Source: Patescibacteria group bacterium
GTDB taxonomy: Bacteria > Patescibacteriota > Minisyncoccia > UBA6257 > GWB1-50-10
Direction of reading: 5' to 3'
DNA length: 64,000 nt
NCBI GenBank assembly: GCA_024239035.1
Contig: JANBVK010000001.1
Location: 338,115 to 402,114, forward strand
Shown in pieces: positions 9,101 to 53,940 of this stretch. The position numbers and the translations under genes were made by a program. Below the pieces are notes generated by a model. That model did not search any database. It was not told the origin of the DNA and saw only the letters and a program-made list of their open reading frames with translations. Position 1 is the stretch's first letter. Every line of letters begins with the position of its first letter.

Positions 9101-9577
9101 AGTAGCCGGAACAGGCACACCGGGCACACTAGGAACTCCGGGGGTTGCCCCGACAACAGCCGTGTACTTAGCCTGAGAAACACTATTCGCAGCCTGCCAT
9201 TTCGCGACAGCACCTCTGGTCAAAGGACCAAAGTAGCTTGTCTCGTTTCCTGGCGAACCAACTCCGCTTGCAGCGAGTGTGTTACCGGTTGCATTGAGGT
9301 ATTGCTGTAAACACTTTACGTCATCACCTGTTGCTCCCAATGTGAGGCTTCGGGAAAACGAACAGGATGCAGACATAGCACCACCTCCTTGCAAAACGGC
9401 TAAACTCGCTTGCAATTGAGAAATGGTAGCCAACAGAGCATTAATTTGAGCTGTAAGATCAGCTATTGATTGAGCTGAAGTTACAGGTATAGGGACGAGA
9501 AGAGAAGCTCCGGTGAGCCACACTGCCGTTGTGACAGAGAGACCGACCGCAGCAACTTTTTTCGTTAATTTACTCAT
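6170..9577 (-). CDS. giant secreted/surface protein with a peptidoglycan-binding-like domain and a long T/S/V/G-rich beta-repeat region
   Basis: 1135 aa. N-terminal signal/TM, coiled-coil QINALLATISQLQASL, PG_binding_1-like LTLGATGDDVKCLQQYLN...GPLTRGAVAKWQ. Downstream is a low-complexity Thr/Ser/Val/Gly-rich region typical of adhesin or S-layer proteins. Confidence 0.5.
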   Translation of the reverse strand: MSKLTKKVAAVGLSVTTAVWLTGASLLVPIPVTSAQSIADLTAQINALLATISQLQASLAVLQGGGAMSASCSFSRSLTLGATGDDVKCLQQYLNATGNTLAASGVGSPGNETSYFGPLTRGAVAKWQAANSVSQAKYTAVVGATPGVPSVPGVPVPATGLAVSLASDTQLGTSLPKGAANVPFLKFNLAGSGTVQTIVVRRVGAGATTDFDNVYLYDGVTRLTSGRSVNSSSHESTFTNLNLAVSGVKTLTVVADMSSTAAAANRHSFEVVAVTADASVSGIPTRGNEMNVSGSTAGSLTAAKTGSLSNPSIGQVGANVSQFRLSAATEDVEVERIALFYAGTISKSNISNFVLKDVAGNTLATVASINTDDLIIFELSTPLKVLKGDNETLKITADVGNAKKDETIKIYVEEKSDIFGIGQQFGHGVSVTNNFNSTASNHHVLTLQGGTLTIAFGGPNTGDVAKNLKDVVLYDFTMHSNVNLEVRNIRFTVTASTTQAGVDDFKVVDVDSGFVIAGPVDDATGTVVLSDVFTINAGQTRHLNITGDTDTNWLDLETIKVDLNAFTLTSDLKNLDNNQFLTTTEVVPDAVIPGNTLTVKAPTLDVSLAGLPVSDSFVKGSTDVPLIGIGLRATSDQIKVTTIKISASAASGTLAQQKADMLSLKLFDGTTQIGATEALTGSSAPATATFDNLEFIIPKGAQKVLVVKVNLSSSATFNNEYALAIVNVADTTGVDIVAVDTEGNEPAYSGSDFLNVEAGVKITILNAGSVTVATAPDDSESKATIVAAGGNKTIFSKFRFTATNESLTIQDLKLLVNNDSSTAAAATSTAEVSAVYLYDGTNLIGSTSGYVPIGSGSSAGEVTIEDLGWLIPKDTTKTLTVKADLNPTVGTGGGTSGRSIYVHVRETGFEATGAASTVSTLSPGALGKQKVYYETYPEITVQTPGTSALVGGTNDLIKFTVVNKTSNEQLSWGVVSFKVSAAGATLPASSGTLTVTLRDLTNSVNLTIGTTATSAADSATSMNISLYLSSEEQIAGGGSRQYRISMGSITTDTSDNISTQLVLRQDTSSVSIAKGVAFLVAAGSGATAVDGVVDADDSGFVWSDNSAVGHTLLTTDWANGVFVDTFPSDTFSLSN

Positions 9578-13483: not shown

Positions 13484-14226
13484 TGGGAGGCAGCAAAAAT
13501 GATAAGGGTTATAAAAACAAAAAAAGCGAGTTCACGAAAAATAAAAGATAAATTCAAAAAACCCCTGAAATGGACCGCCAAACTATCTCTCACCAATAAG
13601 AAAAAAAGCGTTAAAAACACTGCGGCATTTATAAAACCAAGCGGTAAAAAACTGGTGAGCCAGGCAATTTCCACCGCCAGAATGCCGACAATCCCGAGGG
13701 CGGCAAGCGTCCTTTTACCTTTATAGATGCCAAAGAATTTAAAAACTTCCTCAAAAATCAAAACCATCATAAAAAATAATACTATCCCTAGAAACCAAAA
13801 ATTATCCGGCCGACCCAGATGAAAGACCAATAAAAAAAGTAAAAGCAGTAGCGAGGTATTAAAAATCCCATAAACCAAAAATTTATCTTTAAAAAAGAAG
13901 CTCATCAAACCTAAAAGGATAAAAAAAAGAAAAGCGAAAAGCGCAAGCGCAATTATAATAAATAGAGGCGGTGAAAACGAAGACAAAAGCAGTTTGATGC
14001 CAATCAAGCTGAAGATTGGTAAAAACCAAAACGAAACTTTGAGTAATCGCCGCTCCGTAATCTGGGAAAAGTAAATACTGACGAACACCGTAAAGAAAAC
14101 AGCTAGAGCAACCAGACTAAAATCAAACCACAAAACAAAAAGTAAGGTGAGTGTTGCGAGAGCCGTTTTAAACGGCAATCTCCACGCGGTTCGATCGGTT
14201 AAGAGAAATGCTAATTTTTTGGCCAT
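13471..14226 (-). CDS. hypothetical polytopic membrane protein
   Basis: 251 aa, at least 7 hydrophobic helices. The annotated start overlaps the 3' end of clpB by 59 nt, so the start is uncertain. Confidence 0.4.
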
Positions 14227-16801
14227 CTTTAACTTTACCCCTCACCATTTTATCAGCAAGGCCATCAACAATAGTTTTCTGAATTAAACGCTTAATCGGC
14301 CTCGCCCCGTAATCCGGATCAAATCCTTCCTTAGCTAAATAATCTTTAACCTGAGATTTAACATTAAGAAAGATACCGCGTTTTTTTAATCGTTCTTGAA
14401 CTTCGATGAGCTGAATATCCACAATCTTCCGAACCTGAACGGGAGTCAACGCATTAAATATAACAATTTCATCAAGCCGGTTAAGAAATTCAGGTTTAAA
14501 CGTGTGTTTCAGAGCATCCATTGCTTTTTCCCGAAACCCGTCTTCTTCTTTAGAAAAAGTTTCTCCGCTAGCACCTGACTCAAAACCTAAGGATGACATT
14601 TGACGGAAATATTCACTGCCAACATTAGATGTCAAAATAATAATGGAATTTCTGAAGTTAACGGTTTTCCCTTTGCTGTCGGTAAGCCGGCCATTATCAA
14701 GCACTTGAAGTAAAATATTAAAGACTTCAGGATGAGCTTTCTCAATTTCATCGAATAAAATTAGTGAGTAAGGACGGTGACGAATCGTCTCAGTGAGTTG
14801 TCCCCCCTCTTCGTGGCCAATGTAGCCGGGCGGTGAACCAATAAGACGTGAGATGGCGTGGCGTTCCATGTACTCTGACATATCAATACGAATTAGAGCT
14901 TTTTCATCATTGAACATGAAAGTTGCCAGAACCTTAGCCAATTCTGTTTTCCCTACACCGGTCGGACCCAGAAACATAAAAGACCCTGCCGGCTTGTCTT
15001 CGTCAGCTAAACCAGTTCGTGAACGCCTGAGAGCCCGGGCAACGGCGTTTATTGCCTCTTTCTGACCAATCACTTGCCCTGATAGTTCGCTATCCAGCCG
15101 GACCAATTTCTTCATCTCCGACTCAAGCATTCTCGCAACTGGAATCCCGGTCCAGCGGGAAACCACAGCCGCTATATCTTCATCATCAACGTACTCTTTA
15201 ATAAATTTACCTTTCCGTTCAACTTTGAAGTAACGTTTTTCAAATGATTTAAGTTCGCGCAGGGCTTTAGGCAGTTCACCATAAGTAATTTGAGCCACCC
15301 GTTCCAGGTCCCCCTCTCTTTCAGCAACCTCGGCAAAACGACGGAGATCGTCAACCACCTTTCTTAAATTGTGCAAATTCTCAACAGCGATCTTTTCAGC
15401 GTGCCAACTAGCTGAAAGAGTATCATTCTCCTCCTTAAGTTTAGTAAGTGCTTTCCCTACTTCTTTTAGACGATCAATCGTCTTTTTAGATTTATCCTTA
15501 CTAAGAGCTGATTTCTCAACTTCTAAACGGGTGATTTCCCGGCGCAACTTATCAATCTGGCCAGGCGTACTGTCAGATTCAAGGCGCCTCGCGGCAGCAG
15601 CCTCGTCAATCAAATCCACTGCCTTATCGGGCAAAAAACGGTCAGTAATGTAACGAGCGCTTAAATTCACCGCGGCAATAAGAGCTTCATCGCTAATTTT
15701 CAAACCGTGGTGCATCTCATATTTTTCTTTGAGACCTCTCAAAATTGTAATACTATCCTCAAGGTTCGGCTCTTCTACTAAAACCGGCTGAAACCGGCGT
15801 TCAAGAGCGGCATCTTTCTCAATATGTTTCTGATACTCTTTCAGGGTAGTGGCCCCGACGGCGTGAAGTTCACCTCTGGCTAGGGCTGGTTTTAATAAAT
15901 TAGACGCATCGATCGCCCCTTCAGCCGCCCCGGCACCGACTATCATATGAATTTCATCAATAAAAAGGATAATTCTCCCGGCTGATTGCTGAACTTCTTT
16001 TAAGAATGCCTTCAGCCGATCCTCAAACTCTCCCCGGAATTTCGTACCGGCAATAAGCGATCCTAAGTCAAGCATAACAACCTCCCTATCCTTCAAAGAT
16101 TCAGGAACATCCCCCGTCACAATCCGCTGAGCCAACCCCTCAACAATAGCTGTCTTACCAACGCCCGGCTCGCCAATAAGCACCGGGTTGTTTTTCATCC
16201 GGCGGCTTAAAATTTGTGTCACCCGTCTTAACTCTTCATCCCGCCCGATTACCGGGTCAAGCTTTCCATCTTTCGCTCTCTGCGTTAAGTTGATCGCGTA
16301 TTTTTCTAAAACTTGAAATTTGCTCTCCGGCATCTCATCAGTCACCCGCACCGAACCCCGAAGGTGGGCTAAAACACGTAAGAGAGCGTCACGACGGATG
16401 CCGAAACGAGTTAGAGTTTCTCGAGCTGCCGAAGGAACGTCCAAAAGAGCTAAAATCAAGTGTTCACAAGACACAAATTCATCTCTTTGTCTTAAAGAAA
16501 TACCAGCGGCTCGATCCAAGACCTTCATTAACTCCTGAGAAAGATAAAGCTGACTGACGTTACTGCTGCCCGAAAAAATCTTTGGAAGTTTTGTAAGCTC
16601 ACTTTCTAATTCTTTCTCGAGCTCTGCCAGGTTCACATTAGCCCGAACGAGCATTGGCCGAACAAGAGTGGTATCATCGCCAAGGAGTGCGTGCAGCAGA
16701 TGTAGGGCTTTTAATTCGCCGTGATTGTACCGCGCGACAAGTTCTTGCGCACTCTGAAGCGCTTCTTGAGCTTTAATAGTAAAACGATGGAAGTTTGGCA
16801 T
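14168..16801 (-). CDS. clpB: ATP-dependent chaperone ClpB
   Basis: 877 aa. Two AAA+ modules ([15 protein letters not shown]; [16 protein letters not shown]) separated by a long coiled-coil middle domain. Clp N-domain at the N-terminus. Confidence 0.9.
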
Positions 16802-33018: not shown

Positions 33019-34575
33019 ATGAGAAAAACTTTCGTCCTCGCCATCCTCGATGGTTGGGGGATTGGAAAACTCAACGAGTCAAATCCAATCCATATTGCGG
33101 GTCTCAAGACTATTAGGTATATAGAAAATTCTTTCCCAAGCGGCGCTCTCCAAGCCTCGGGAATCGCCGTAGGTCTCCCTTGGGGAGAAGAAGGGAATAG
33201 TGAAGTAGGCCATCTTACTATTGGCACCGGCAGGACTCTCTACCAACATTTTCCGAGAATCTCAATGGCAATTGAGGATGGTTCTTTTTTCAAAAACCCC
33301 GCGCTAAGGAGTGCGTTTCTACATGCACGAAAAAATAACTCTGCCGTTCACCTTATAGGGCTTTTGACTAAAGGTAATGTCCATGCCTCTCTCAAGCACT
33401 TAGTGGCGCTAATTGAGATGGCTAAAAAAGAAAACTGCCCAAACCTTTACCTTCATCTCTTTGCTGACGGGCTCGACAGTCCTCCTCACTCTCTTCTCTA
33501 TCTTGTTAAAAACTTGGAAGGAATTTTACAAAAAAATAAAGTTGGCGTTATTACAAGCTTAATGGGCCGATATTATGCCATGAACCGCGACAACCATTGG
33601 GAGCGGACCGAAAAGGCCTACAGGACCCTCACGGGCATTGACACAAACGTCAAATCCTACAAGGAAGCAACAGAAGAAATCTACCAGAAGGACCTAGACG
33701 ACGAATTTATCGAACCAATTATCATAGATAAACCACATCCTATCCAAGACAACGATGCGGTTATTTTTTTTAATTTCCGCGAAGACAGTATGAGGCAGAT
33801 AACCGAATCCTTTGCGAACCCTGCTTTTAATAAATTCCCGATCAAAAAATTGAGCAATCTTTCTGTTACAACAATGACCGAATATCAAAAAGGACTGAAA
33901 ACAGCCGTCGCTTTCCCCAGCGAGAAAATTAAAAACTCTTTGGGGGAAGTACTCGCAGACAACCAAAAAACCCAACTCAGAATCGCTGAAACCAAAAAAT
34001 ACGCCCACGTTACCTACTTCTTCAATGGTTTAAGAGATGCTCCCTTCCCAAATGAATACCGCGTGCTCATCCCCTCCAAAAGCACTATCCGTCAGGAAGA
34101 ACACCCTGAAATGATGGCCGGTGCCGTCACTGAACGGTTACTCATTGCCTTAAACGAGGGAGGGTTTGATTTTATTCTTATAAATTATGCTAACCCGGAC
34201 ATCATTGCCCACACCGGCAACTACCAAGCAGTTCTGGAAGCAGTCAAGGTAATCGATAAAGAACTAGAAAAACTCATAAAAAGCGTCCTAGCTGGTAACC
34301 ACGTCCTTTTAATTACATCTGACCACGGCAACGCCGAATCGGTTCTAAACCTTAAAACTGGGGAGCCAGAAACTACCCATGATCCAAATCCGGTGCCCAT
34401 TTATCTAGTCGCCAAAGATTTAGAGAAGAGTCCCCCAGCAAACTCGGGACAAACTCCGCCTCGTTTAAAAACTATCGGTATACTCTCCGATGTCGCCCCA
34501 ACCATTCTTGATTTAATGAACATACCAAAACCCTCCAGTATGACCGGGCAAAGCTTATTAGACCAACTAGTTTAA
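33019..34575 (+). CDS. gpmI: 2,3-bisphosphoglycerate-independent phosphoglycerate mutase
   Basis: 518 aa. iPGM N- and C-terminal metalloenzyme domains (ILDGWGI..., ITSDHGNAE). Confidence 0.9.
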   Translation: MRKTFVLAILDGWGIGKLNESNPIHIAGLKTIRYIENSFPSGALQASGIAVGLPWGEEGNSEVGHLTIGTGRTLYQHFPRISMAIEDGSFFKNPALRSAFLHARKNNSAVHLIGLLTKGNVHASLKHLVALIEMAKKENCPNLYLHLFADGLDSPPHSLLYLVKNLEGILQKNKVGVITSLMGRYYAMNRDNHWERTEKAYRTLTGIDTNVKSYKEATEEIYQKDLDDEFIEPIIIDKPHPIQDNDAVIFFNFREDSMRQITESFANPAFNKFPIKKLSNLSVTTMTEYQKGLKTAVAFPSEKIKNSLGEVLADNQKTQLRIAETKKYAHVTYFFNGLRDAPFPNEYRVLIPSKSTIRQEEHPEMMAGAVTERLLIALNEGGFDFILINYANPDIIAHTGNYQAVLEAVKVIDKELEKLIKSVLAGNHVLLITSDHGNAESVLNLKTGEPETTHDPNPVPIYLVAKDLEKSPPANSGQTPPRLKTIGILSDVAPTILDLMNIPKPSSMTGQSLLDQLV

Positions 34576-40551: not shown

Positions 40552-43500
40552 TTATTTCAGTTTTCGGAGCGCGAGCCAAATTGGCCACGTATTAAGTTTT
40601 GTTTCCAGTTCAATATCAAATTTACTCGATCGCTTAAACTCTATTGTCTTCGCATTAACTTCCTTTTTCACTAATTTCTCATTTGTCTCAACAACGTGGT
40701 GTAACTCCTGCGGCAGCTCAACCATCAAAACAACCTTGTCTTTTGGCTCAAACCCCGCATCCTGCCGCAGACCCTGAACTAAACGAACAAATTCCCGAAG
40801 CCAGCCTTCTTCTTTCAGCTCGTGAGTAAGAGTAGTATCCAGTTTAACTTCTTCTTCTAAATTTTTATCGAAGATGACGTTTTTAATATTAACTTCGTCT
40901 TTAATAATTTCGTAAATACCAAAACTTTTAGAAAACTCTATTGAAGTACTTACTTTCGAAAGAGGTTGACGAACCTTAATGCCTTCTTCGGCTCTTTTAG
41001 CTAAAATAATACTTGAAAGGCGACGGGCGTCTTCCATCTCTTTTAATAATTTTTTATTAATCATCTTTTTATTTGCCTTTGGCCAATCCTCCAAGTGAAC
41101 CGACAATTTACGATTCGCGGCCAGTGATTTATAGAGCGCTTCTGCAAAAAACGGCACAAAAGGCGCAAGAAGCTTACTGACCTCCAAAAGTACGTATCCG
41201 AGTGTCTCTGATGCTGCTCGATAATCTTGTTGGCTCTCCGGTCTTTGAAATCTTCTTCTGGACCGCCGAATATACCACCTAGAGAGATCGTTTACCAAGA
41301 CCTCTATCGCCCGGGCAGCACTTCCCACTTCATACCGTTCTAAGTCCCCGGTCACTTCCAGAATAGTCTCATTAAGCCGGGATAAAACCCAAACATCGAG
41401 TACGTTGGTTGTTTTTGGCGCGCCATCGGGCGACCTCTTATCTGTATATGTATTAAAGAAAACAAAAGAATTATAAGTTAGTGAAATAAATTGCCGCAAC
41501 ACCTTAGCTAAATCCCTCTCATCAAAACGTTTAGGTTCGCTTGGGGAATTTACTGTGTAAAAATACCAACGAATAGCATCGGCACCGTACTTTGAAATCT
41601 CTATCCACGGATCGACAACATTCCCTTTTGATTTTGACATTTTCTGGCCACGCTTATCCAAAACTAATCCATGAGAAATCACGTTCTTGTACGATGTGCC
41701 ACGCCCCAAAAGAACCGAGACCGCTAAGAGCGTGTAAAACCATCCACGAGTTTGATCTAATCCTTCAACAATGTAATCAGCCGGGAAATCAATCCGCCCG
41801 CTGGCAGACTTTTCAAAAGGATAATGCGCTTGCGCAAACGGCATCGCTCCCGAATCAAACCAGGCATCTATCACTTCTTTAACCCGTTCCATATTTCCCT
41901 TACATTGAGTACTAGGACAAGAAAAACGGACCTCATCTATGTAGGGTCTATGAAGATCTAATTCACCAATCTCGTTGCGAGGGATATTCCTGAAATGCAC
42001 CGGATAAGCTTTACTCTTTTCAGGATAAAAGCCTTCCGGTAAACCTTTTTTTGCGCTCATTTCACTTTCTCTGACCAAACCAGTCATCAAAGAGTACATC
42101 ATCCATAAAGGATCGCCGTGACTTACAATAACAATGGTCTTATTTTTATATTTCTTCTCTGTAAACTTTATAAAATCAAAAATTCTCGCACTCAAATCGT
42201 TCAATGACTCGCCATTGGGAGCTGGCCGCGTAAAGCGCTCGTGGGGATAATTAAAATAACGATGATATTCCTCTATACTTTTATCGTTAAAATCACCGAC
42301 ATCTAACTCTCTCAAACGGACATCATAGACAACCTTAAGGTCGGTTTTGTGAGCAATTATCCCAGCTGTTTCTTTGGTACGAAGTAAATCCGAAGAGAAA
42401 ATCAAATCAATCTTTTTCTTTTTCAACTCCCGGCCAAGCCTACGCGCTTGATCTTCACCGATAGTAGTAAGAGGATATTTCTTCTTCTCCGGCCAACAAC
42501 TATTGATGCCTTCTAAATTATTTTTAGCTTCTGCGTGCCGCACAAAAATGTACTGATTTGTGCTCTCCCCCCAAAGTTTTTCAAGTCTTTCAATACTTCC
42601 TACCACCTCCGTCTTACCGCATTTCTTACACTCCCAGATAGGTAAAGGCGTGCCCCAGTAACGCTCTCGGGAAAAAGCCCAATCCTTCGCCTCTCTCAAC
42701 CATTCGCCAAATCGGCCTTCTTTAATGTGTTTAGGTATCCAGTTAATCTTTTTATTGGCGGCCAGAAGCTTGGGCCGTAGCTTACTCATTGCGATAAACC
42801 ACGAATCGCGGGCGTAGTAAATAAGAGCCGTGTCACAACGCCAGCAAAATGGGTAGTCGTGAGTGTATTGCTCGGTTTTTAGCTTATAGCTTTTAGCTTC
42901 TAGGTGGTGTAAAATTTTCTCTTCGGTTTTTTTATCCTTGACGTATAGACCGGATAAACCTGGAACTTCTTTAGTAAATTTTCCGTTCTCGTCAACTGTG
43001 TGATACTGGGGTAATCCCACTTTTTTCCCGAGATTATAATCATCCTCTCCGTACATCACTGCCGTATGCACCACACCGGTTCCTTCAGCCGTCGTCACAA
43101 ATTCAGCTGGATAGACTTTATAAGAATTTTTATGTTTTAGCGGCTTTACGTTAAAAAGCGGTTCGTATTCCCAACCAACAAGATCTTTCCCGTTGAAGGT
43201 TTCTTCTTCATTCCCTTTATAGGAATCTTCATCAAGAATAGAGAGCCGATCCTCCGCAAGAATAAGAATTTCCCCGTTTTTCATGCGCACTCTCTTGTAG
43301 AGAATATCTTTACCGACTGCAAGCGCCACGTTGCCAGGTAGAGTCCAGGGAGTTGTTGTCCAAGCGAGAATGTATACTTTTCCTGACTTTATTTGCGGAT
43401 CAGATCCCCTACGAACGCGGAACTTCACATATACCGAGCTGTCAGTAGTCTCTTTATAGCCCTGAGCGAGCTCATGAGAAGAAAGAGCCGTTCCGCAGCG

Positions 43501-44046
43501 GGGACACCACGGTAACACTTTGTGCCCCTTATAAAGCAGTTTTTTCTTTGAAATCTGTGAGATTATCCACCAGAGCGTCTCAATATATTTTGACTCGTAA
43601 GTAATATAGGGATTCTCCATGTCCAGCCAGAAACCGATGCGTTCGGTGAGCTTCTCCCATTCGTCTTTGTATTTCCATACCGATTCTTTGCACTTTCGGT
43701 TAAACTTGGCAATGCCGAATTTTTCAATTTCCTGCTTTGATTTAAGACCCAATTCCTTCTCAACTTCTATTTCAACCGGCAAACCATGCGTGTCCCATCC
43801 GCCGCGCCGAGGCACAAAAAAACCGGACATCGTTTTGTAACGAAGGATAATATCCTTAAACGAGCGGGCTAAAACGTGGTGAATCCCCGGCCGGCCATTC
43901 GCTGTGGGAGGCCCTTCGTAAAATACGAATTTCTTACTCTTCACTCTCTGCGCAACTGCTTTATCAAAAATTCTGTTAGTTTTCCAGAATTCCAAAACTT
44001 TCTCTTCTATTTCGGGTAGTGAAAACTTTTTGAGCTGTTGAAGCAT
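40552..44046 (-). CDS. ileS: isoleucyl-tRNA synthetase with an embedded histidine-phosphatase (PGAM-family) domain
   Basis: 1164 aa. HIGH-like PGIHHVLA, KMSKS. Zinc knuckle WECKKCGK...(about 230-aa insert)...CPSTQC. The insert carries the RHG-type motifs IFVRHAEAKNN and IVIVSHGDPL. Confidence 0.9.
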   Translation of the reverse strand: MLQQLKKFSLPEIEEKVLEFWKTNRIFDKAVAQRVKSKKFVFYEGPPTANGRPGIHHVLARSFKDIILRYKTMSGFFVPRRGGWDTHGLPVEIEVEKELGLKSKQEIEKFGIAKFNRKCKESVWKYKDEWEKLTERIGFWLDMENPYITYESKYIETLWWIISQISKKKLLYKGHKVLPWCPRCGTALSSHELAQGYKETTDSSVYVKFRVRRGSDPQIKSGKVYILAWTTTPWTLPGNVALAVGKDILYKRVRMKNGEILILAEDRLSILDEDSYKGNEEETFNGKDLVGWEYEPLFNVKPLKHKNSYKVYPAEFVTTAEGTGVVHTAVMYGEDDYNLGKKVGLPQYHTVDENGKFTKEVPGLSGLYVKDKKTEEKILHHLEAKSYKLKTEQYTHDYPFCWRCDTALIYYARDSWFIAMSKLRPKLLAANKKINWIPKHIKEGRFGEWLREAKDWAFSRERYWGTPLPIWECKKCGKTEVVGSIERLEKLWGESTNQYIFVRHAEAKNNLEGINSCWPEKKKYPLTTIGEDQARRLGRELKKKKIDLIFSSDLLRTKETAGIIAHKTDLKVVYDVRLRELDVGDFNDKSIEEYHRYFNYPHERFTRPAPNGESLNDLSARIFDFIKFTEKKYKNKTIVIVSHGDPLWMMYSLMTGLVRESEMSAKKGLPEGFYPEKSKAYPVHFRNIPRNEIGELDLHRPYIDEVRFSCPSTQCKGNMERVKEVIDAWFDSGAMPFAQAHYPFEKSASGRIDFPADYIVEGLDQTRGWFYTLLAVSVLLGRGTSYKNVISHGLVLDKRGQKMSKSKGNVVDPWIEISKYGADAIRWYFYTVNSPSEPKRFDERDLAKVLRQFISLTYNSFVFFNTYTDKRSPDGAPKTTNVLDVWVLSRLNETILEVTGDLERYEVGSAARAIEVLVNDLSRWYIRRSRRRFQRPESQQDYRAASETLGYVLLEVSKLLAPFVPFFAEALYKSLAANRKLSVHLEDWPKANKKMINKKLLKEMEDARRLSSIILAKRAEEGIKVRQPLSKVSTSIEFSKSFGIYEIIKDEVNIKNVIFDKNLEEEVKLDTTLTHELKEEGWLREFVRLVQGLRQDAGFEPKDKVVLMVELPQELHHVVETNEKLVKKEVNAKTIEFKRSSKFDIELETKLNTWPIWLALRKLK

Positions 44047-44107: not shown

Positions 44108-45811
44108 TTACATCTGTTTAGGAGCAGAAATTCCTAAGAGAGAAAGGCCGCTTGTAAAAGTTATAGAAAGAGCGCGCGCAAGAGCAACTCGAAACGCTTT
44201 CTTTCCCGTACTTTCTTCCTGCATAACCGGATGTGAATGATAAAACTCATTAGCTTTCTGCGAAAGATTGTGCAAATAGAAAGCTAAAGTATTCGGTGTC
44301 CGTTTCTCAAGCGCTGATTCTATAACTTCCGGAAACCTCAAGAGAGCGACAAGCAATAATCTTTCGGTATCATCTAACGTCTCGCCCTCAGACATTTTGT
44401 TCGGTGTCTTTCCAATCTTTCGTAGAATGCTTAAAAAACGTGCATTAGTGTACTGGATATACGGACCAGTATCACCCTCAAAGGATAATGCTTCCTCACG
44501 GTTAAAGATTATATTTGATTTCCGATGATGAGATAAATCAAAGTATTTCAAGGCTCCAATACCCACTTCTTTTGCAACTTCATCTGCGTTCTCTAAATCA
44601 GGATTCTTCTCCTGAATCACTTCTCTAGCCCGAGCAACCACGTCATCTAGCACGCTCTGAAGAGAAATAACCGAGCCTTTACGAGTACTCATTGCCCCTT
44701 CAGACAAAGACATGAAACCGAACTCAATATGCTCACTCTCGTTGACGCCTTTAAGACCTAAAAGTTCGGAAACTTTAAACAACTGTTTGAAATGATGCAA
44801 TTGCCGCACGTCCACCACGTAGAGATTTTTCCAAAAATCCAGCTCTCTTTGCCAATATTTGAGAGTAGCAAGGTCACGAAGCAGATACGTCGAGGCTCCA
44901 TCAGATTTAGTAAGCACGGCTTCATCTAAGCCGTAATCTAAAAGATCTACCACAACCGCTCCATCGTCCGTCTTTTTAGCTACTTTTTTTCGTAAGGACA
45001 GTTCTACAATTTCGGGCATCAAATCCTCATACGCGCTTTCGCTTCTATGCTTTTCGAAAGGCAGAAGATTTAGTTGGCTTATAATCTCCCGGAATTTTTC
45101 CATTGACACATCCACCATCCACTGCCAGATTTCTCTGTTTTCTTTATCACCTCGTTCTAATTTTGCAAATTCTTCTTTCGCCTTCTTGCGGCGTTCAGGA
45201 TCGTCTTCAATAAGGCGGGTTTCATCAATATAAAGCTGATTTAATTTTTCAACCGGGTTCTGCTTTACTTCGTCTTTTTCCTGCTCGCTCAATGACTTAT
45301 AACCGTAGATTAAAATACCAAATTGTGTTCCCCAGTCACCAATATGGGTATCTGATACAACCGTATACCCCTCGGTAATAAACATTCGCTTCAGAGCGTC
45401 ACCTATCACCGCTGAACGCAGGTGACCCACATGAGGAATTTTTGCAACGTTCGGTTGAAAATATTCCACCCGTACCGTTTTTCCACGCCCTATATCGCTT
45501 TTTCCCCACTGACTAGTTTTCTTAAGTAGATGATTTAGGTTAGAAAGAAGTGCTTTGTCGTGAATCCAAAAATTAATAAAGCCTGGGGGCACCACTTCAA
45601 TTTTCTTGAAAAATTCCTCAGGCGCTTTTTGCCTCAGATGAGAAATAATATCCTCGGCAACGCTCACGGGGGTTTTCCCCAAGTGCTCCGCCAGCTGAAA
45701 AGCGACGTTTGTCGAATAATGGCCGAATGTTTCCTTTTCGGGAACAGTTACGTTAATCTCAGTATTTCTAGGGACAACTTTCTTAAGATAAGTAATAATT
45801 TTATCTCGCAT
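44108..45811 (-). CDS. argS: arginyl-tRNA synthetase
   Basis: 567 aa. HVGHLRSAVIGD (HIGH) and the C-terminal DALS anticodon-binding domain. Confidence 0.9.
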   Translation of the reverse strand: MRDKIITYLKKVVPRNTEINVTVPEKETFGHYSTNVAFQLAEHLGKTPVSVAEDIISHLRQKAPEEFFKKIEVVPPGFINFWIHDKALLSNLNHLLKKTSQWGKSDIGRGKTVRVEYFQPNVAKIPHVGHLRSAVIGDALKRMFITEGYTVVSDTHIGDWGTQFGILIYGYKSLSEQEKDEVKQNPVEKLNQLYIDETRLIEDDPERRKKAKEEFAKLERGDKENREIWQWMVDVSMEKFREIISQLNLLPFEKHRSESAYEDLMPEIVELSLRKKVAKKTDDGAVVVDLLDYGLDEAVLTKSDGASTYLLRDLATLKYWQRELDFWKNLYVVDVRQLHHFKQLFKVSELLGLKGVNESEHIEFGFMSLSEGAMSTRKGSVISLQSVLDDVVARAREVIQEKNPDLENADEVAKEVGIGALKYFDLSHHRKSNIIFNREEALSFEGDTGPYIQYTNARFLSILRKIGKTPNKMSEGETLDDTERLLLVALLRFPEVIESALEKRTPNTLAFYLHNLSQKANEFYHSHPVMQEESTGKKAFRVALARALSITFTSGLSLLGISAPKQM

Positions 45812-45868: not shown

Positions 45869-46306
45869 ATGAGTACATTAGCCATAAATAAACGAGCAAC
45901 GTTTGATTATGAGACTCTAGAAAAGTTCACTGCGGGCATTGAGCTTACCGGGCATGAAACAAAGTCTATGAAGCTCGGCCACCCAAACATTGTGGGCGCA
46001 CATGCAATTATACGAGATAACGAGGTTTTTTCGGTTAATATAGATATTCCTTCTTTCCAACCCTTAAATGCTCCGAGTAACTACGATCCCCTGCGCACTA
46101 GAAAATTACTCCTGAGGCGCAGTGAGATAAAGTATCTCGCCGGTAAATTGCTGAGCGGCTTGACGCTCGTACCCTTGAAACTCTATACTGACCACGGATT
46201 AGTAAAGGTAGAAATTGCGCTGGCACGCGGCCGCAAAAAACACGACAAACGCGAGCTCATTAAAAAACGAGAAAGCGATAGAGAGATAAGAAAGTTCAAA
46301 AAGTGA
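45869..46306 (+). CDS. smpB: SsrA-binding protein SmpB
   Basis: 145 aa. ...YETLEKFTAGIELTGHETKS...KLLLRRSEIKYLAGK... The tmRNA gene follows immediately. Confidence 0.9.
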   Translation: MSTLAINKRATFDYETLEKFTAGIELTGHETKSMKLGHPNIVGAHAIIRDNEVFSVNIDIPSFQPLNAPSNYDPLRTRKLLLRRSEIKYLAGKLLSGLTLVPLKLYTDHGLVKVEIALARGRKKHDKRELIKKRESDREIRKFKK

Positions 46307-46308
46307 TA

Positions 46309-46619
46309 GGGGATGTTAGGCTTTGACAGAATACATTCTGGTAAATTGCAGGTCGAGCTGATTGACTCGTAAATCCGATCAAACTAATTTAACTGCTAAT
46401 AAAAACGCAGCTCCAGCTCTAGCATACGCTTAAGCTGGTATCGGTCCTTGATATCTAATATAGGTTAACCGGTATAATACATTAGATTCGCTTCTGGCAA
46501 AACGGTCCGATAGTCAGAAGTTAAATTATAGGATCACTTCTGTTTTCGTAAGAAAACTAAGCTTGTAGATTATCTACTCAGAAATATTTTGGACACCGGT
46601 TCAACTCCGGTCATCTCCA
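46309..46619 (+). ncRNA. ssrA: tmRNA (SsrA), CCA not encoded; tag peptide ANKNAAPALAYA
   Basis: 5' GGGGATGTTAGGCTTTGACAG...; tag ORF GCT AAT AAA AAC GCA GCT CCA GCT CTA GCA TAC GCT TAA at 46394-46432. tRNA-like 3' end CCGGTTCAACTCCGG-TCATCTCC-A pairs with the 5' GGGGATG. Confidence 0.8.
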
Positions 46620-46629
46620 CAAACAAAAA

Positions 46630-46657
46630 ATACTCCGCCTTGTGCGGGGTATTTTTT
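46630..46657 (+). terminator. rho-independent terminator after tmRNA
   Basis: ATACTCCGC-CTTGT-GCGGGGTAT-TTTTTTG. Confidence 0.6.
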
Positions 46658-46662
46658 GTTTT

Positions 46663-46823
46663 CTGGAATGGTCACGGAGTTGAACAAGCGGAGGGGGTCG
46701 GGGAACCACGATTGGTTCCCCGTGTTGGAATGAGTCCGCCATCTGGCGGACGGATTCAAAACCGAGGGTTTTGAAAGAGCTCCGACGTAAAGTTGGAGCG
46801 ATGTGAAACTCCTCATCTCCACA
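46663..46823 (+). ncRNA. tRNA-3'-associated structured element, copy 2 (downstream of tmRNA)
   Basis: CTGGAATGGTCACGGAGTTGAACAAGCGGAGGGGGTCGGGGAACCACGATTGGTTCCCCGTGTTGGAATGAGTCCGCC...TTCAAAACCGAGGGTTTTGAAAGAGC...GTGAAACTCCTCATCTCCACA. The start approximates the reverse complement of the tmRNA 3' end. The end copies GTTCAACTCCGGTCATCTCCACA. Confidence 0.7.
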
Positions 46824-46885
46824 ACTTGACGAATCGTTGTAGATGTGCTAGTCTATGATTAGCTCAAATCCAACATGGAGGAAAG

Positions 46886-47212
46886 ATGAAGAAACGAATC
46901 ATCTCCCCGCTACTGGCTACGTTTGCGGTCATCGCCCTTGTCGGATGCGACCCGGCTGCGCAACCACCTGATGAGAACACTCCCACGGACACTTCCTTGG
47001 AAAGCGTGATGGACTACGGCAACGGCGTCTACTACTTCCCACAGGACGGTTCGAGATTCGGCAACGCACTATCCGAATTCATCGCCGATCATCCTGATTT
47101 GGAACTCGTCGCCTTCGCCGATAACGGGAAGGGAGCCTTTGGACTCAGCATCGGGCACTTCATCGTGTTTCGAAATCGGGTCGATACCCCGCCAGACTCG
47201 ACCTCCAACTGA
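46886..47212 (+). CDS. small lipoprotein (signal peptide plus lipobox Cys), compositionally atypical
   Basis: 108 aa. MKKRIISPLLATFAVIALVGCDPAAQPPDE... Visibly higher GC and different codon usage than neighbouring genes. Followed by hairpin GAGACGGTCTC-ACCAGA-GATCGTCTC (47231-47258). Confidence 0.4.
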   Translation: MKKRIISPLLATFAVIALVGCDPAAQPPDENTPTDTSLESVMDYGNGVYYFPQDGSRFGNALSEFIADHPDLELVAFADNGKGAFGLSIGHFIVFRNRVDTPPDSTSN

Positions 47213-47469
47213 ACAAACAAGAACAAAGTTCGAGACGGTCTCACCAGAGATCGTCTCTTTCTTTTATCCAACCTACTCAACTACCACTATGTGATATATA
47301 TCATCTCTCTGAAGTTTCGATAACTTCTAGTCTCTTTCCCAATGTTTTCATACCGCTCAATAACTCATACGTTTCAAATATATAGCTTTCTAACTGGTTC
47401 TCCTTCAACTGCGCTCAGGACAGGCAAGTTTTTTGCGCTATCTCCACCAGAAAGAATTTCACACACCAT

Positions 47470-47498
47470 TGACAAATCCTATTTAATAGTTTACAATC
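47470..47498 (+). promoter_or_regulatory. consensus-like sigma-70 promoter TTGACA-N17-TACAAT
   Basis: TTGACAaatcctatttaatagttTACAAT upstream of the 47515 ORF. Confidence 0.45.
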
Positions 47499-47514
47499 AA
47501 GCACAGATCGACTC

Positions 47515-47820
47515 TTGAAAAGGAGCGAAAAAATGAGTGGACCAGCAAATCCGGAAACGAAAGAGGTTCACGGCCACACTTTTGAGTTTGTCAGCGAAGG
47601 CAAACCAGAAGTAGGCCTCCATCCTCACTGGAGAAGCATCGGCGCCAACTCCGTGTTCATTTTCCCTCCACATGGACAGAGAGAATCCTGGACTATCTGG
47701 TCCCCGTATCCCAATCTATGTGTTCATTCAACAGGAGAAGATGCTGAAGAAAAATCTTTCTCTATGGTTGGAACAATCATAGAGACTCTAACTGCCCGGC
47801 AACACGCCGTATCGGTCTAA
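47515..47820 (+). CDS. hypothetical small protein
   Basis: 101 aa, no recognisable domain. Lies in the insertion flanking the tmRNA gene. Confidence 0.3.
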   Translation: MKRSEKMSGPANPETKEVHGHTFEFVSEGKPEVGLHPHWRSIGANSVFIFPPHGQRESWTIWSPYPNLCVHSTGEDAEEKSFSMVGTIIETLTARQHAVSV

Positions 47821-47938
47821 TGGAGATCTAAATTCTACCAACGGGCCCCGTTCTCTATAGAACGGGGCTCTTGATGTTTTAATACGTCTAAGCTCAACTG
47901 GCCACTTGCGCTTCTCAGAACACTTGTAGTATCCTACT

Positions 47939-48445
47939 ATTACCATTCGTTACAGAATCAACAACCAAATAACCGCAAAAGAGGTCAGGGTCATCGATGA
48001 TACTGGTCAGAGCCTAGGTGTTTTAAAACAGGAAGATGCTCTGCGTCTGGCCCAAGAGAAAAACCTTGACTTAATTGAGGTCGCTCCAAGAGCCAACCCA
48101 CCCGTTGCAAGAATAATAAGCTTTGATAAGTTCCGCTACCAAAAGGAAAAAGAAGAAAAAAAACAGCGTCAAGCCCAGAAAGTCAAAGAACTAAAACGAG
48201 TTAGGATAACTCCTAGAGCAGCTCTAAATGACCTTCAAATCAAGGCCAGGAGAGCAGACAAGTTTTTAGAGGGTGGTCATAAGGTAGAAATTAATCTGTT
48301 CCTTAGGGGTCGAGAAAAGAGAAATAAGACCTGGAGCCTGCAAAAACTGGATGAATTCTTACATATGATTAAGACCCCCTATAAAATAACTATGGAGGCA
48401 AAACGCGGTGGGAGAGGTTTTATCACGCAGATTGCAAAAAAATAA
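47939..48445 (+). CDS. infC: translation initiation factor IF-3 with non-ATG (ATT) start
   Basis: Missed by the ATG-based ORF track. The frame translates to ITIRYRINNQITAKEVRVIDDTGQSLGVLKQEDALRLAQEKNLDLIEVAPRANPPVARIISFDKFRYQ...FLRGREKRNK...ITQIAKK. The frame opens after TAG at 47927-47929. ATT at 47939 or 47945 is the likely start. Confidence 0.75.
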   Translation: MTIRYRINNQITAKEVRVIDDTGQSLGVLKQEDALRLAQEKNLDLIEVAPRANPPVARIISFDKFRYQKEKEEKKQRQAQKVKELKRVRITPRAALNDLQIKARRADKFLEGGHKVEINLFLRGREKRNKTWSLQKLDEFLHMIKTPYKITMEAKRGGRGFITQIAKK

Positions 48446-48618
48446 TGGCGAAAAACAGCATCTCAGACAGAATTAAAATTACCAAAAAAGGGAAGGTGAT
48501 ACGTCGGGCAATGGCACTCGGCCACTCGCGCAGCAACAAGCGCAGCGTTCAGATACAAAGAAAAAAAAGGAAACGAAGTCTAGGCATCCCGAGAAAGATA
48601 ATAAAAAAGTACTTATAA
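48445..48618 (+). CDS. rpmI: 50S ribosomal protein L35
   Basis: About 57 aa. MAKNSISDRIKITKKGKVIRRAMALGHSRSNKRSVQIQRKKRKRSLGIPRKIIKKYL. Start overlaps the infC stop (TAATG). Confidence 0.7.
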   Translation: MAKNSISDRIKITKKGKVIRRAMALGHSRSNKRSVQIQRKKRKRSLGIPRKIIKKYL

Positions 48619-48966
48619 ATGACACGAGTCAAACGAGGAACAACAGCCCACAAGAAAAGAGAAAAACTACTCAGCCACACTAAAGGATTCCGCTGGGGTA
48701 GGAAATCAAAAGAACGCGCTGCGAAGGAAGCGCTCCTTCATGCTTGGAGCCGCGCATTCAAAGGACGTAAAGAGAAAAAACGCGTCTTCCGCAGGTTATG
48801 GAATGTACGGATAGATGCTGCAGTTAGAGCGGAAGGATTGAAATACAGCATATTTATAAATGCGCTCAAAAAGAAAAACATCAAGCTTGATCGCAAAATT
48901 CTGGCTGATCTCGCCAGAAACGAACCTCAAACTTTTAAAAAGATTGTTGAATTCATCAAAACTTAA
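48619..48966 (+). CDS. rplT: 50S ribosomal protein L20
   Basis: 115 aa. [30 protein letters not shown]... Confidence 0.9.
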
Positions 48967-51447: not shown

Positions 51448-53940
51448 TTACTCAACTATCCGAAACTCAAAATTACCATCCTCGAATGTAAGTTTAATTA
51501 TATTGCCTCGAGCAATCTCTTTTCGTAAAATTTTTTCGGCTAGAACACTCCTTATTTTTTCGGAGATAACCTGCCTCAACGGCCTTGCGCCAAAGACCGG
51601 GCTGTAACCTAATTCGGAAATCTTTCTCACGGCCGACTCATCAATAGTCAGTTCAATGCCATGAGTTTCCTGCAGAAGACTGGTAATTTCTTTAATTAAT
51701 ATGCCTGTGATAGTAAAAATCTCCTCCATATTGAGGTTACGAAACACAATCACGTCGGAAAAACGGTTAAGAAGCTCCGGTTTGAAATAATCAGTTAATT
51801 TTCTTTTCAGGTTTTCCCCAATCTCCTCAATACTTTTCTCTTTCTCAATCTCCGACTTAATGAAATTAGAGTGAGCATTGGAAGTAGCAATAATAACCGT
51901 ATTCTCAAATCCCACTGTCCGACCAAGACTGTCGGTTAAACGGCCGTCATCAAAAACCTGAAGAAAAAGATTCAAAATATCAGGATGAGCTTTCTCAAAT
52001 TCATCAAGTAAAACCAGACTGTAAGGTTTCTCTAAAATCGCGTCAGTTAGCGTCCCCGTCCTCTTACCGTCGGGTGTGCCGATAAAACGGAAGACACTCT
52101 GCTTATCTTGATATTCAGACATATCAAAACGCTCCATTAAATCTTTAGAGCCGAATTGGACTCTAGTTAGAATTTTAGCTAACTCTGTCTTACCAACGCC
52201 TGTCGGGCCTACAAAAAGAAAGGTGGCAATGGGACCACCGCGGCGGGAGAGCCCGCTCCTATATTCCCGGAGCGCTCGCGAGACCGCCTGCACTGCCGCC
52301 TCCTGATTAACAAGTCGCTCATGGATAATCTTCTCTAGATTTAGCAGTTTTTCCGTCTCCTCAGGCCCGGCTTTCTGAATTGGAATCTTACTCTGCTCTT
52401 CAGCCACCTTAACTACTATCTCTTCCTCTAAGGTTTTTAGGCTTTTCTGATTAGCTCTAGCGAGGGCCTGTTTTAACAGATCAACCGCACTACCGGGCAA
52501 AAGTTTGTCTCTAAAGTAACGATGAGCCAGAGAAACCGCCCTCCTTACCGCTCTAAAGGTTATGAAAACTTTAAATTCTCTCTCCAAAATGAGGCTGTTA
52601 TGAACAAGAAAACGCAGGGCCTCCGACTCGCTTATTTCGTGAACGTCCACAACCTCAAATTGATTTAGAAAATCCGATCTCGGTTCAATAAAGCGTTTAA
52701 ACTCTCGGGGATAAGTCTCGCCGATCATAGGAATCCCACCACTCTTTATAACCGGCAATAGAATATCCATGGCATTTAAAGAACGGCTTTGAGCCGTCCT
52801 AAACAAATCATGAATATTAGGAATGAAAAGAACAATATTCCCGGCCATAATAATCTCTTCAGTAATCTTCTGAAGCCGACCGGCCAAAACTTCAGGTGGA
52901 GCATCGGCCATTAAATCCGAAATCTCTAAAGAAACCAGACGTTTGTCAAAGAGAACTGATGGAACGTCATCTTTTACCATCTTAAAAGCCAGATGAGCAA
53001 TCATAGTTGACTTACCAGCACCGGGCTCACCAACAAGAAGAACATTTGGCTTCCCCGGCCTTGAGATAACGTTCAACATTGCTCTAAATTCCCTTTTATG
53101 CCCTATAAGGAACCCGATTTTCTCGGCTCTGGCTAAACTCGTCAGATCAACGCTAAACGAATCAAGAGTGGGCGTCGGCCGAGCAGTCCAGGCTCGGTTC
53201 ATAACCCGCCTTCTCAAAAATCTGGGCCGATGAGCAAACTCACCCAAAACAGAGGGTAGTCGATGAACCCGGGCAAAAAGTTTACGATAACGACCAAAGA
53301 CAACAACTTCCTCTAAATCAGTAACTGTTATATCAAAAAGCTCAAAAAGCTTAATAAGACTTGTGTCTTTCACCGAACACAGAGCCACAAAGATGTTACG
53401 AGGTTCAATAAATTTCTCACTAGTTCTTACCGCGTTCTGATGAGCAGATATAATCAACGTTTCAATCAAATCCAAAAGTTCTGCCCGCCTAAATTTCTTA
53501 ACCGGCTTTTCTAAATATTCCTCTATTTTTTGGATAAACTCCTCAGGTGAAACACTTAGCCTCCTAAAGGCCGCTTTAACGTCTCTCCGATAAATTAACT
53601 CTTTCAAGAGAACTAAATAAAAATTCTGGTTTATTAAAAGCGCCTTACGAAAAGCATAGTTTAGAACACGATAAGCAGCCGGTGTAATTGTTGAGGCTAG
53701 GTTGACTTTCTCGCCTTTAAGATTAGGTAAAGATCTCTCTGCCTCGCCAAAATGAATCAGCCGGTCAATTAAGAATAGAGTAAATAGCACTGCCAGCCAC
53801 CTCAAAGAAGAAACGTCGGAGAAAAGCAAAAGCAGGGTTACTGCGACAAGGACGATGTAGAAAGAGTAGGTAACCAACCTTACCAAGAATTCTCCTGGTT
53901 TCGTCAGGTAGAAACGTGGTTCTTTAAAATACAAAACCAT
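51448..53940 (-). CDS. membrane-anchored Clp/Hsp100-family double-AAA+ ATPase
   Basis: 830 aa. Two N-terminal TM helices (YSFYIVLVAVTLLLLF; WLAVLFTLFLI). D1 Walker A LLVGEPGAGKST. D2 [16 protein letters not shown]. Confidence 0.7.
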   Translation of the reverse strand: MVLYFKEPRFYLTKPGEFLVRLVTYSFYIVLVAVTLLLLFSDVSSLRWLAVLFTLFLIDRLIHFGEAERSLPNLKGEKVNLASTITPAAYRVLNYAFRKALLINQNFYLVLLKELIYRRDVKAAFRRLSVSPEEFIQKIEEYLEKPVKKFRRAELLDLIETLIISAHQNAVRTSEKFIEPRNIFVALCSVKDTSLIKLFELFDITVTDLEEVVVFGRYRKLFARVHRLPSVLGEFAHRPRFLRRRVMNRAWTARPTPTLDSFSVDLTSLARAEKIGFLIGHKREFRAMLNVISRPGKPNVLLVGEPGAGKSTMIAHLAFKMVKDDVPSVLFDKRLVSLEISDLMADAPPEVLAGRLQKITEEIIMAGNIVLFIPNIHDLFRTAQSRSLNAMDILLPVIKSGGIPMIGETYPREFKRFIEPRSDFLNQFEVVDVHEISESEALRFLVHNSLILEREFKVFITFRAVRRAVSLAHRYFRDKLLPGSAVDLLKQALARANQKSLKTLEEEIVVKVAEEQSKIPIQKAGPEETEKLLNLEKIIHERLVNQEAAVQAVSRALREYRSGLSRRGGPIATFLFVGPTGVGKTELAKILTRVQFGSKDLMERFDMSEYQDKQSVFRFIGTPDGKRTGTLTDAILEKPYSLVLLDEFEKAHPDILNLFLQVFDDGRLTDSLGRTVGFENTVIIATSNAHSNFIKSEIEKEKSIEEIGENLKRKLTDYFKPELLNRFSDVIVFRNLNMEEIFTITGILIKEITSLLQETHGIELTIDESAVRKISELGYSPVFGARPLRQVISEKIRSVLAEKILRKEIARGNIIKLTFEDGNFEFRIVE

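Follow-up and report, generated by a model that had tools for sequence, protein, structure and literature searches.

Aminoacyl-tRNA synthetases (aaRS) are among the best-studied enzymes, and their accessory domains, with roles in editing, tRNA binding or signalling, have repeatedly uncovered new biology. Among the isoleucyl-tRNA synthetases (IleRS), the type-2 enzymes (IleRS2) of P. megaterium (8C8U/V/W) and D. radiodurans can carry a G/AXHH variant of the class I signature, which is seen in IleRS2 only and confers mupirocin hyper-resistance on them (PMC10485003). CP3 is a peripheral connective-peptide subdomain of IleRS, with a topology that varies among these enzymes; in Thermus IleRS it carries a zinc motif (PMC7191050, on the IleRS of C. 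albicans). The histidine phosphatases PspA, PhoE/YhfR and CobC, on the other hand, are free-standing metabolic enzymes without a link to any aaRS. Here, a gene is described that joins both types of enzyme. It is located in a 64,000-nt stretch of a Patescibacteria group bacterium (GCA_024239035.1, contig JANBVK010000001.1, positions 338,115 to 402,114), which is referred to as the window and to which all positions below relate. The gene encodes an enzyme of the same type as the IleRS2 mentioned above, with DUF5915 domains and a GIHH signature, and nested in its CP3 lies an entire histidine phosphatase. Such a phosphatase is nested in, or translationally coupled with, IleRS across much of the Candidate Phyla Radiation (CPR), and the association may extend past Patescibacteria. 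It is probably an active phosphatase that is functionally tied to IleRS.

The gene (40552..44046, minus strand, like all features of the enzyme given below) is complete and consists of 1164 codons plus a stop in one reading frame, with zero internal stops. Its product matches the Pfam models tRNA-synt_1 (E=5.8e-119, halved by the insert), His_Phos_1, Anticodon_1 and DUF5915, and its best solved matches are T. thermophilus IleRS (1ILE; E=3.6e-244) and 8C8U/V/W (E=6.6e-241 for 8C8W). The phosphatase spans residues 490–695 (41962..42579), at the tip of the CP3 hairpin, a position called site A. Alignment to 1ILE pairs residues 4–489 with 4–477 and residues 696–1023 with 488–821, and the approximately 206 inserted residues stand where 1ILE has a hairpin tip of approximately 10 residues between the two Cys pairs of the zinc knuckle. 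The insert is missing in 1ILE and in all other solved IleRS, and it equals an entire free-standing homologue. In total, 231 residues separate the Cys pairs, vs 28–37 in unfused relatives. An initial annotation, made from the sequence alone, had placed a phosphatase at 41949-42564 (residues 495–700), between the half-sites WECKKCGK (residues 471–478) and CPSTQC (residues 710–715). This placement is borne out, and the motifs with the catalytic histidines that it quoted, IFVRHAEAKNN and IVIVSHGDPL, are present at residues 500–510 and 638–647, respectively. The domain assignment is confirmed by the match to His_Phos_1 (PF00300; residues 500–657, 42076..42549; E=4.8e-35). Since the score of 121.4 bits is far over the gathering cutoff of 21.7, a chance match is excluded.

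The catalytic apparatus of the superfamily is retained in full. R503 and H504 (42535..42540) form the RHG-type motif, with H504 as the predicted phospho-accepting nucleophile, and do not vary across the 61 fused and 12 free members taken from genomes, nor in any copy at the further insertion sites B and C described below. Invariant too are R556 (42379..42381), the second phosphate-pocket Arg in an SSDLLR motif, and H643 (42118..42120), the second catalytic His in the VSHG motif. The predicted general acid, E580 in the RLRE motif (42307..42309), is E or D in every member (50 E and 11 D in the fused, 7 E and 5 D in the free members). R503, H504, R556 and H643 are also invariant across 46 fused database proteins. 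The domain as a whole diverges faster than the IleRS around it, with mean distances of 0.59 vs 0.47. In an AlphaFold2 (AF2) model of the full-length protein (mean predicted local distance difference test, pLDDT, of 87.5; pTM 0.78), the insert forms a compact α/β domain with pLDDT 89–96 over residues 495–660 and disorder only at loop 665–671. When it is modelled alone, pLDDT exceeds 90 for 151 of 231 residues. Foldseek aligns this model with probability 1.0 to PspA (4IJ5/4IJ6), PhoE (1H2E/1EBB), TIGAR, a riboflavin-pathway HFP, CobC (6E4B) and GpgP. The root-mean-square deviation (rmsd) is 2.4–2.5 Å to the phosphoserine phosphatase 4IJ5/4IJ6, followed by PhoE at 3.8–3.9 Å, with TMt of 0.66–0.70 to 4IJ5/4IJ6 and 1H2E, and sequence searches agree on these nearest solved relatives. 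Profile score, catalytic motif set and the α/β phosphoglycerate-mutase-like fold all place the insert in branch 1 of PF00300. The models thus indicate that the insert is an independently folded, entire small histidine phosphatase, and its intact phosphate pocket and nucleophile suggest that it is apparently active.

Which phosphatase it is, is less readily read from its relatives. The top NCBIfam matches are dPGM_arch, PspA and CobC, but the insert does not reach the equivalog cutoffs of the dPGM models (NF038349, TIGR01258 and others; dPGM_arch 104 vs 225 bits, pgm_1 36 vs 81.7), PspA (93.5 vs 350), CobC (90 vs 162.9) or SixA (26.3 vs 74.5). By these profiles, it is a member of the superfamily outside every named subfamily tested, and since none of the cutoffs is reached, no specificity can be assigned to it. 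The second catalytic His is followed by GD in the window protein (HGD) and gives HE or HQ in many relatives; dPGM, unlike the window protein, carries HGN there. The window additionally encodes a cofactor-independent phosphoglycerate mutase (iPGM; 33019-34575, plus strand), a conventional glycolytic mutase with iPGM_N (E=1e-67) and Metalloenzyme domains. Because the genome has its own iPGM and no mutase cutoff is reached, the insert is not a glycolytic mutase, and a housekeeping phosphoglycerate mutase is rejected as its identity. The label 'PGAM-like' in the initial annotation therefore holds for the superfamily, not for a mutase. A second copy of the phosphatase was not found in the 64-kb window.

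A frameshift or an assembly artefact joining two genes, against which the initial annotation had cautioned, is excluded by the single ORF (open reading frame), by an identical public protein, by 68 independent genomes and by even base composition along the whole IleRS gene. The identical protein (P0100, NCBI; 100% identity) is encoded on a 729,382-bp contig. In a genome scan with one genome per GTDB species, 139 relatives were found and 80 loci kept. Of these Patescibacteria loci, 68 hold the fusion as a single uninterrupted ORF of 1106–1262 residues (IleRS-N, phosphatase, IleRS-C), one of them in a complete 689-kb Nealsonbacteria genome, and ten have a free-standing phosphatase directly upstream of IleRS. 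All 120 best full-length matches from NCBI, JGI, ENA and Logan combine PF00300 with IleRS domains. Where an organism is named among them, it is Patescibacteria, Jorgensen-, Lipton- or Brennerbacteria, Paceibacterota or Minisyncoccia, the names on many metagenome-assembled genomes being submitter labels. A phmmer search with the junction segment (residues 431–750) retrieved 329 representatives of 50%-identity clusters at E<=1e-30, and nearly all of the top 150 show one continuous match across the junction. The phosphatase domain is present in each of the 270 database proteins retrieved with IleRS or with the junction segment. Public annotation labels these essential enzymes 'isoleucine--tRNA ligase' or, on account of the insertion, only 'class I tRNA ligase family protein'. 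Neighbour-joining trees are star-like, with four changes of state on the IleRS tree and seven on the phosphatase-domain tree, in which the outgroups are not separated, and give neither a number of fusion events nor a direction of fusion vs fission.

The nearest relatives of the insert are free-standing proteins of approximately 186–200 residues with 40–51% identity. For six of them, divergent subtypes included, the gene in each locus lies immediately 5′ of an insert-free IleRS of 949–978 residues, and in four of the six (seven loci) the phosphatase stop overlaps the IleRS start by 4 nt. In relatives, the free-standing gene sits between the genes for ArgRS and IleRS. The window has the same synteny (SmpB, ArgRS, IleRS), with the ArgRS gene at 44108..45811 (minus strand) as upstream neighbour of IleRS and a 61-nt spacer at the place of the free-standing gene. 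Where other genes part the phosphatase from ArgRS, its adjacency to IleRS survives. A metagenome sample of 80 loci, drawn with an alignment of free-standing members only, still contained 14 fused loci (13 classified as fused and L156, in which the ORF is cut by the contig start). For 61 of the 63 free-standing genes in this sample with at least 400 nt downstream, IleRS follows on the same strand, and 57 of the 63 (90%) abut or overlap the inferred IleRS start. The linkage stops sharply: P0095, with E=1e-21 to the insert, is linked to IleRS, and P0096, P0097 and P0441 (E ~1e-12 to 1e-14), the last being a free-standing relative of the site-B phosphatase, do not adjoin it. The phosphatase is thus an obligate genomic partner of type-2 IleRS in CPR/Patescibacteria.

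All site-A fusions have the same position and hold the whole free-standing sequence (from N-x-Y...RHG to TGE-RK) between 'IGSxxEL' and 'D-HRPYID', which widens the Cys-pair spacing from 28–37 to 220–236 residues. A candidate 'new linker' motif (LP-N/D...E-D-HRPYID) was rejected, as it is native CP3 sequence that is also present in the uninterrupted CP3 of protein P0292.

Site A is not the only position used. When every phosphatase domain of the 270 database proteins was mapped onto the window numbering, 260 proteins were found to use site A alone, while ten use two further loops, both of which are empty in the window protein. These ten are cluster representatives, several of them backed by multiple assemblies. 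Site C is the loop at residues 744–755 after WFDSG (41782..41817; pLDDT <50 at 745–749), and holds a phosphatase in P0357/P0450, P0358, P0342 and P0314. Site B is the loop at residues 868–881 (41404..41445), in the passage from the long post-SC-fold helix to the anticodon-binding domain, and is occupied in P0292, P0269, P0346, P0358 and P0342. In P0292, CP3 is uninterrupted and the copy at site B is the sole phosphatase; its gene lies on a 268-kb NCBI contig beside those of AlaRS, UvrB and UvrC. P0357/P0450, annotated Peregrinibacteria, use site C only. Other proteins carry two phosphatases, at sites C and B (P0358, with six members on contigs of up to 1.06 Mb, and P0342), A and B (P0269, P0346) or A and C (P0314, P0360, P0347, P0368). 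The catalytic residues are intact in every site B/C copy and in all double-domain IleRS, and the site B/C copies score like generic relatives against the hidden Markov model of the clade. A further protein, P0367 (1395 residues, ENA, 11.6-kb contig), combines a site-A phosphatase with a P-loop kinase-like domain of approximately 170 residues at site C (residues ~738–905). This domain, seen in one cluster representative only, has the Walker A motif LSGACGAGKTT and weak, non-discriminating matches to APS, shikimate and Pnkp1 kinases (E 0.02–0.05).

Because nesting has occurred repeatedly and in frame, two copies are kept in streamlined genomes and the catalytic residues are invariant, these sequences argue for selection on phosphatase activity at IleRS, i.e., on a removal of phosphate that textbook aminoacylation does not need. 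Likewise, a real functional link between phosphatase and IleRS is strongly supported, given the operon-coupled free-standing homologues, the recurrent insertion at three sites and the invariant catalytic residues. The initial annotation had proposed an added, regulatory or moonlighting activity; the same observations favour this proposal, which was unspecific as to function. The site-B-only IleRS of locus L094 (GCA_021733565.1, JAKFZD010000009.1) has flanks that are closest to IleRS fragments annotated Chloroflexota, Dehalococcoidia or Anaerolineae, and its gene neighbourhood differs from that of Paceibacteria.

Free and fused forms differ strikingly in charge. Free-standing members are hyper-basic, with a median pI of 9.9, a net charge of +10.6 per 100 residues and approximately +20 per protein (n=93). 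In a comparison within their own loci, the free forms (+10.4, n=80) are matched in basicity by just 5.5% of 416 other proteins (Mann-Whitney p=7e-28), and five of six tested unlinked relatives are acidic. Site-A fused domains are near neutral, with a median of +1.6 (n=260) vs +1.7 for their own IleRS bodies, and site B/C copies carry a net charge of -5 to +2. The difference between free and fused forms, approximately 12 charges, is distributed across the whole domain. A compensating acidic docking patch on unfused IleRS was not found. As judged from these compositions, an untethered enzyme would need to be drawn by its charge to a polyanion, for which tRNA or the IleRS-tRNA complex is the most plausible candidate, and covalent nesting would remove that need. 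The charge data support action at IleRS-tRNA, without thereby proving RNA as the substrate.

Taken together, the insert may be a catalytically competent branch-1 histidine phosphatase, i.e., a PhoE/PspA/CobC-like phosphomonoesterase, that as obligate partner of type-2 IleRS acts at IleRS, likely at IleRS-tRNA(Ile), a tRNA end as substrate being offered only as a guess; this reading could well be right and could equally well be wrong. In the proposed mechanism, H504 would attack a terminal phosphate bound by R503, R556 and H643, yielding a phospho-enzyme, while E580 as acid would protonate the leaving group. Water would then hydrolyse the phospho-histidine intermediate, and phosphate would be released. 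The phosphatase would be recruited to IleRS, most likely to the IleRS-tRNA(Ile) complex, by exceptional positive charge in the free form and by the covalent link in the nested form, and would constitute a third hydrolytic site alongside the synthetic and editing sites. The leading guess for its substrate is a terminal phosphate that the acceptor end of tRNA(Ile) carries or that is freed beside it, for example a 3′- or 2′-phosphate or a pyrophosphate by which charging would be blocked. An adenine-nucleotide monoester is a further candidate. That the relevant substrate is borne on tRNA rather than being a free small molecule is somewhat doubtful. More doubtful still, and on balance unlikely, is the most specific version, in which this third catalytic site on CPR IleRS would strip the tRNA acceptor end, or an adenylate-type ligand, of a terminal phosphate or pyrophosphate. 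Such a reaction would amount to tRNA end-healing or de-blocking embedded in an aaRS, complemented in one lineage by the P-loop kinase-like domain.

Several points weigh against an action on tRNA at IleRS. We know of no member of the histidine-phosphatase superfamily that acts on RNA ends, and all nearest relatives in sequence and structure act on small metabolites. The near-neutrality of the fused domains, together with extra acidic residues by the catalytic motifs (residues 508, 559 and 644), disfavours a polyanionic substrate. The three insertion sites argue against one precise geometry, unless the sites are close in three dimensions, and the copies at sites B and C may have been recruited separately, from among generic PhoE-like enzymes. 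Moreover, nothing accounts for tRNA(Ile) or IleRS alone requiring such an activity, and gene order in streamlined genomes can stay conserved without a mechanistic link. Much of this would suit a phosphatase of a free metabolite or nucleotide monoester (e.g., AMP, pAp, a phospho-amino acid or a sugar phosphate) that is coupled to IleRS for reasons of stoichiometry or local chemistry only, its place there serving co-expression, product removal or regulation and not the processing of tRNA. The closest solved relatives (PspA, PhoE, CobC, TIGAR, GpgP and HFP) are all metabolite phosphatases, as the top NCBIfam matches would also have it, the exact geometry appears uncritical and the fused domains are near neutral, with acidic residues close to the pocket. 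Nevertheless, the ribosomal-protein-like basicity of the free form and its loss upon fusion are left unexplained by such an enzyme, as is the exclusive pairing with IleRS, and the missed subfamily cutoffs leave no substrate to assign to it. A small-molecule phosphatase is the main rival reading and is considered somewhat unlikely.

The same conservation of gene order raises the question whether the phosphatase is an unrelated housekeeping enzyme that happened to lie upstream of the ancestral CPR ileS, was held there by operon inertia and was sometimes captured into permissive IleRS loops. The block of L20-L35-IF3, SmpB, ArgRS, IleRS, RecO and ProRS/ThrRS-type genes is indeed conserved with functionally unrelated members such as RecO, and CP3, being peripheral and variable in topology, is probably tolerant of insertions (PMC7191050). 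Such hitch-hiking is nonetheless rather improbable: the adjacency to IleRS outlasts insertions and rearrangements that part the gene from ArgRS, in-frame nesting has taken place at three loops and in distinct lineages and contexts, two copies persist in some IleRS despite streamlining, and the large shift in charge implies that the free form is adapted to find what fusion supplies. Very unlikely is a protein phosphatase that would dephosphorylate IleRS itself or a partner, for instance to reverse inhibition by a kinase toxin. The superfamily includes protein phosphatases (cf. SixA, Sts-1, PGAM5), HipA-type kinases target aaRS, and a tether would favour action in cis. The SixA model, however, matches only weakly (26 bits vs its cutoff of 74.5), the 50 best structural matches include no protein-directed member, and the PADLOC defence and toxin-antitoxin models gave no match at E<=0.01 for the insert and two free-standing members; a constitutive phosphatase in cis would, moreover, render regulation futile. 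Least probable of all is a module without turnover, i.e., a tRNA- or phosphate-binding or structural appendage that docks, for example, the tRNA 5′-phosphate. Although aaRS often gain RNA-binding appendages and the free form is highly basic, the fused copies are not basic, and the invariance of both catalytic His, both Arg and the acid in hundreds of sequences at 33–51% identity is a signature of catalysis.

Apart from the insert, the host enzyme has the make-up of an IleRS2: a class I catalytic domain, CP1 editing, Anticodon_1, type-2 C-terminal domains where IleRS1 has its zinc-binding domain, KMSKS and a G/AXHH signature. Residues 1–489 (42580..44046), aligned to 4–477 of T. thermophilus (Tth) IleRS, comprise the first Rossmann half, the CP core, the CP1 editing domain, CP2 and the first half of CP3. 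Cys pair 1 (C473, C476; 42619..42630) corresponds to Tth C461/C464 and is kept in fused and unfused relatives. The second half of CP3 (residues 696–722, LDLHRPYID...CPSTQC; 41881..41961), aligned to Tth 488–504, contains the conserved pair 2 (C710/C715). The anticodon-binding domain (residues 884–1031) and the type-2 C-terminal domain (DUF5915, residues 1067–1143), together at 40618..41397, are supported by Pfam and by a structural match to IleRS2 8C8V. The fold of the modelled enzyme compares with IleRS2 and eukaryote-like IleRS at TMt 0.77–0.88, with 8C8U/V and 1ILE as best matches. The initial annotation had called the enzyme an otherwise normal IleRS with HIGH, KMSKS and an editing domain. 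KMSKS (residues 802–806, 41629..41643; K802–K805 invariant in the 46 fused database proteins) and the editing motifs (W229–G238, H327 and D336, invariant in the same set) stand, but the signature is GIHH instead of HIGH (residues 54–57, 43876..43887). It pairs with HVGH of 1ILE, and G54, H56 and H57 are invariant in these 46 proteins. The ORF is the sole IleRS homologue noticed in the window, and its homology predicts that the enzyme aminoacylates tRNA(Ile) isoleucine-specifically. No T-box or other Rfam element at ileS reaches the gathering thresholds.

In related loci, G/AXHH occurs in 46 of 61 fused and 9 of 13 unfused IleRS, the remainder having HXGH. As it is present in both, the signature, although frequent in the group, is not coupled to the phosphatase. 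The unfused IleRS of a basal clade, which lie beside a free-standing phosphatase (loci L072, L077, L081, L085 and L086), have EMHKS or GMHKS instead of KMSKS and G(V/I)HH instead of HIGH. Both class I signatures are thus non-canonical in what is apparently the sole, essential IleRS.

Elsewhere in the window, the trans-translation partners are adjacent, with smpB at 45869-46306 and the tmRNA at 46309-46620 (both plus strand; Rfam 123.7 bits; tag peptide ANKNAAPALAYA), which begins 3 nt past the smpB stop. The approximately 1.8 kb that separate the tmRNA from the L35/L20 genes at 48445-48966 (46620-48445) contain no ORF of at least 120 codons from ATG, GTG or TTG. IF3 precedes L35 in relatives, and this interval may hold an IF3 gene that begins with an unusual codon. 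Two genes for ClpB/ClpC-like double-AAA+ chaperones (14168-16801, 877 residues, and 51448-53940, 830 residues, both minus strand) lie within these 64 kb of a very small genome. Finally, two ORFs encode large uncharacterised proteins that are typical of CPR genomes: one of 1135 residues (6170-9577, minus strand), with a peptidoglycan-binding domain as its only Pfam match, and one of 681 residues (10208-12253, plus strand), with zero Pfam matches.

No account of a phosphatase within or next to IleRS turned up in full-text literature searches, nor in broad surveys of IleRS, a survey of domain insertions or a paper on the structure of an IleRS; the broad IleRS surveys (including PMC10485003) make no mention of a phosphatase on IleRS2. 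Should the substrate be borne on tRNA, the phosphatase would represent a new class of tRNA quality control or repair, and tRNA end-healing on IleRS, if true, would be without precedent in the histidine-phosphatase superfamily as well as among aaRS. Should it be a small molecule, metabolism in organisms with minimal genomes would be coupled to translation in a new way. In either case, the free and fused pair with its charge switch offers a natural example of a covalent tether in place of electrostatic recruitment.

Of the known phosphatases, PspA (4IJ5/4IJ6), PhoE/YhfR (1EBB, 1H2E) and CobC (6E4B, 6NRU) share the fold and the R-H...R...E...H apparatus with the insert, at approximately 27–32% identity and an rmsd of 2.4–3.9 Å (best chains). 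They differ in having no link to an aaRS, and the free clade linked to IleRS is hyper-basic. Precedent for a CobC/PhoE-like domain fused to a nucleic-acid enzyme is given by the RNase H/acid phosphatase of the Rv2228c type (NF005567), a model among the best matches (E 1e-18 to 1e-24), with scores of 67–87 that lie far below its cutoff of 326 bits. Both the Rv2228c-type proteins and the MutT1 of mycobacteria, in which a Nudix and a histidine-phosphatase domain are joined, are fused end to end instead of being nested, and involve no aaRS. P0367, with its phosphatase at site A and P-loop domain at site C, resembles kinase-phosphatase bifunctional enzymes such as PFK-2/FBPase-2, in which FBPase-2 is itself a branch-1 histidine phosphatase, and polynucleotide kinase-phosphatase; unlike these, it is known from one cluster representative, with weak kinase matches. 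The closest parallel in architecture is the CP1 editing domain of IleRS, ValRS and LeuRS, likewise a complete hydrolytic domain that is nested in a connective peptide and adds a further active site. CP1 is universal and ancient, has another fold and acts as an aminoacyl-ester hydrolase on mischarged tRNA, whereas the insert is nested in CP3, is restricted to certain lineages, belongs to the histidine-phosphatase superfamily and also exists as a separate gene. Although the nesting of a phosphatase is apparently undescribed in literature, the resulting architecture is that of a domain-nested aaRS, a principle that it shares with CP1.

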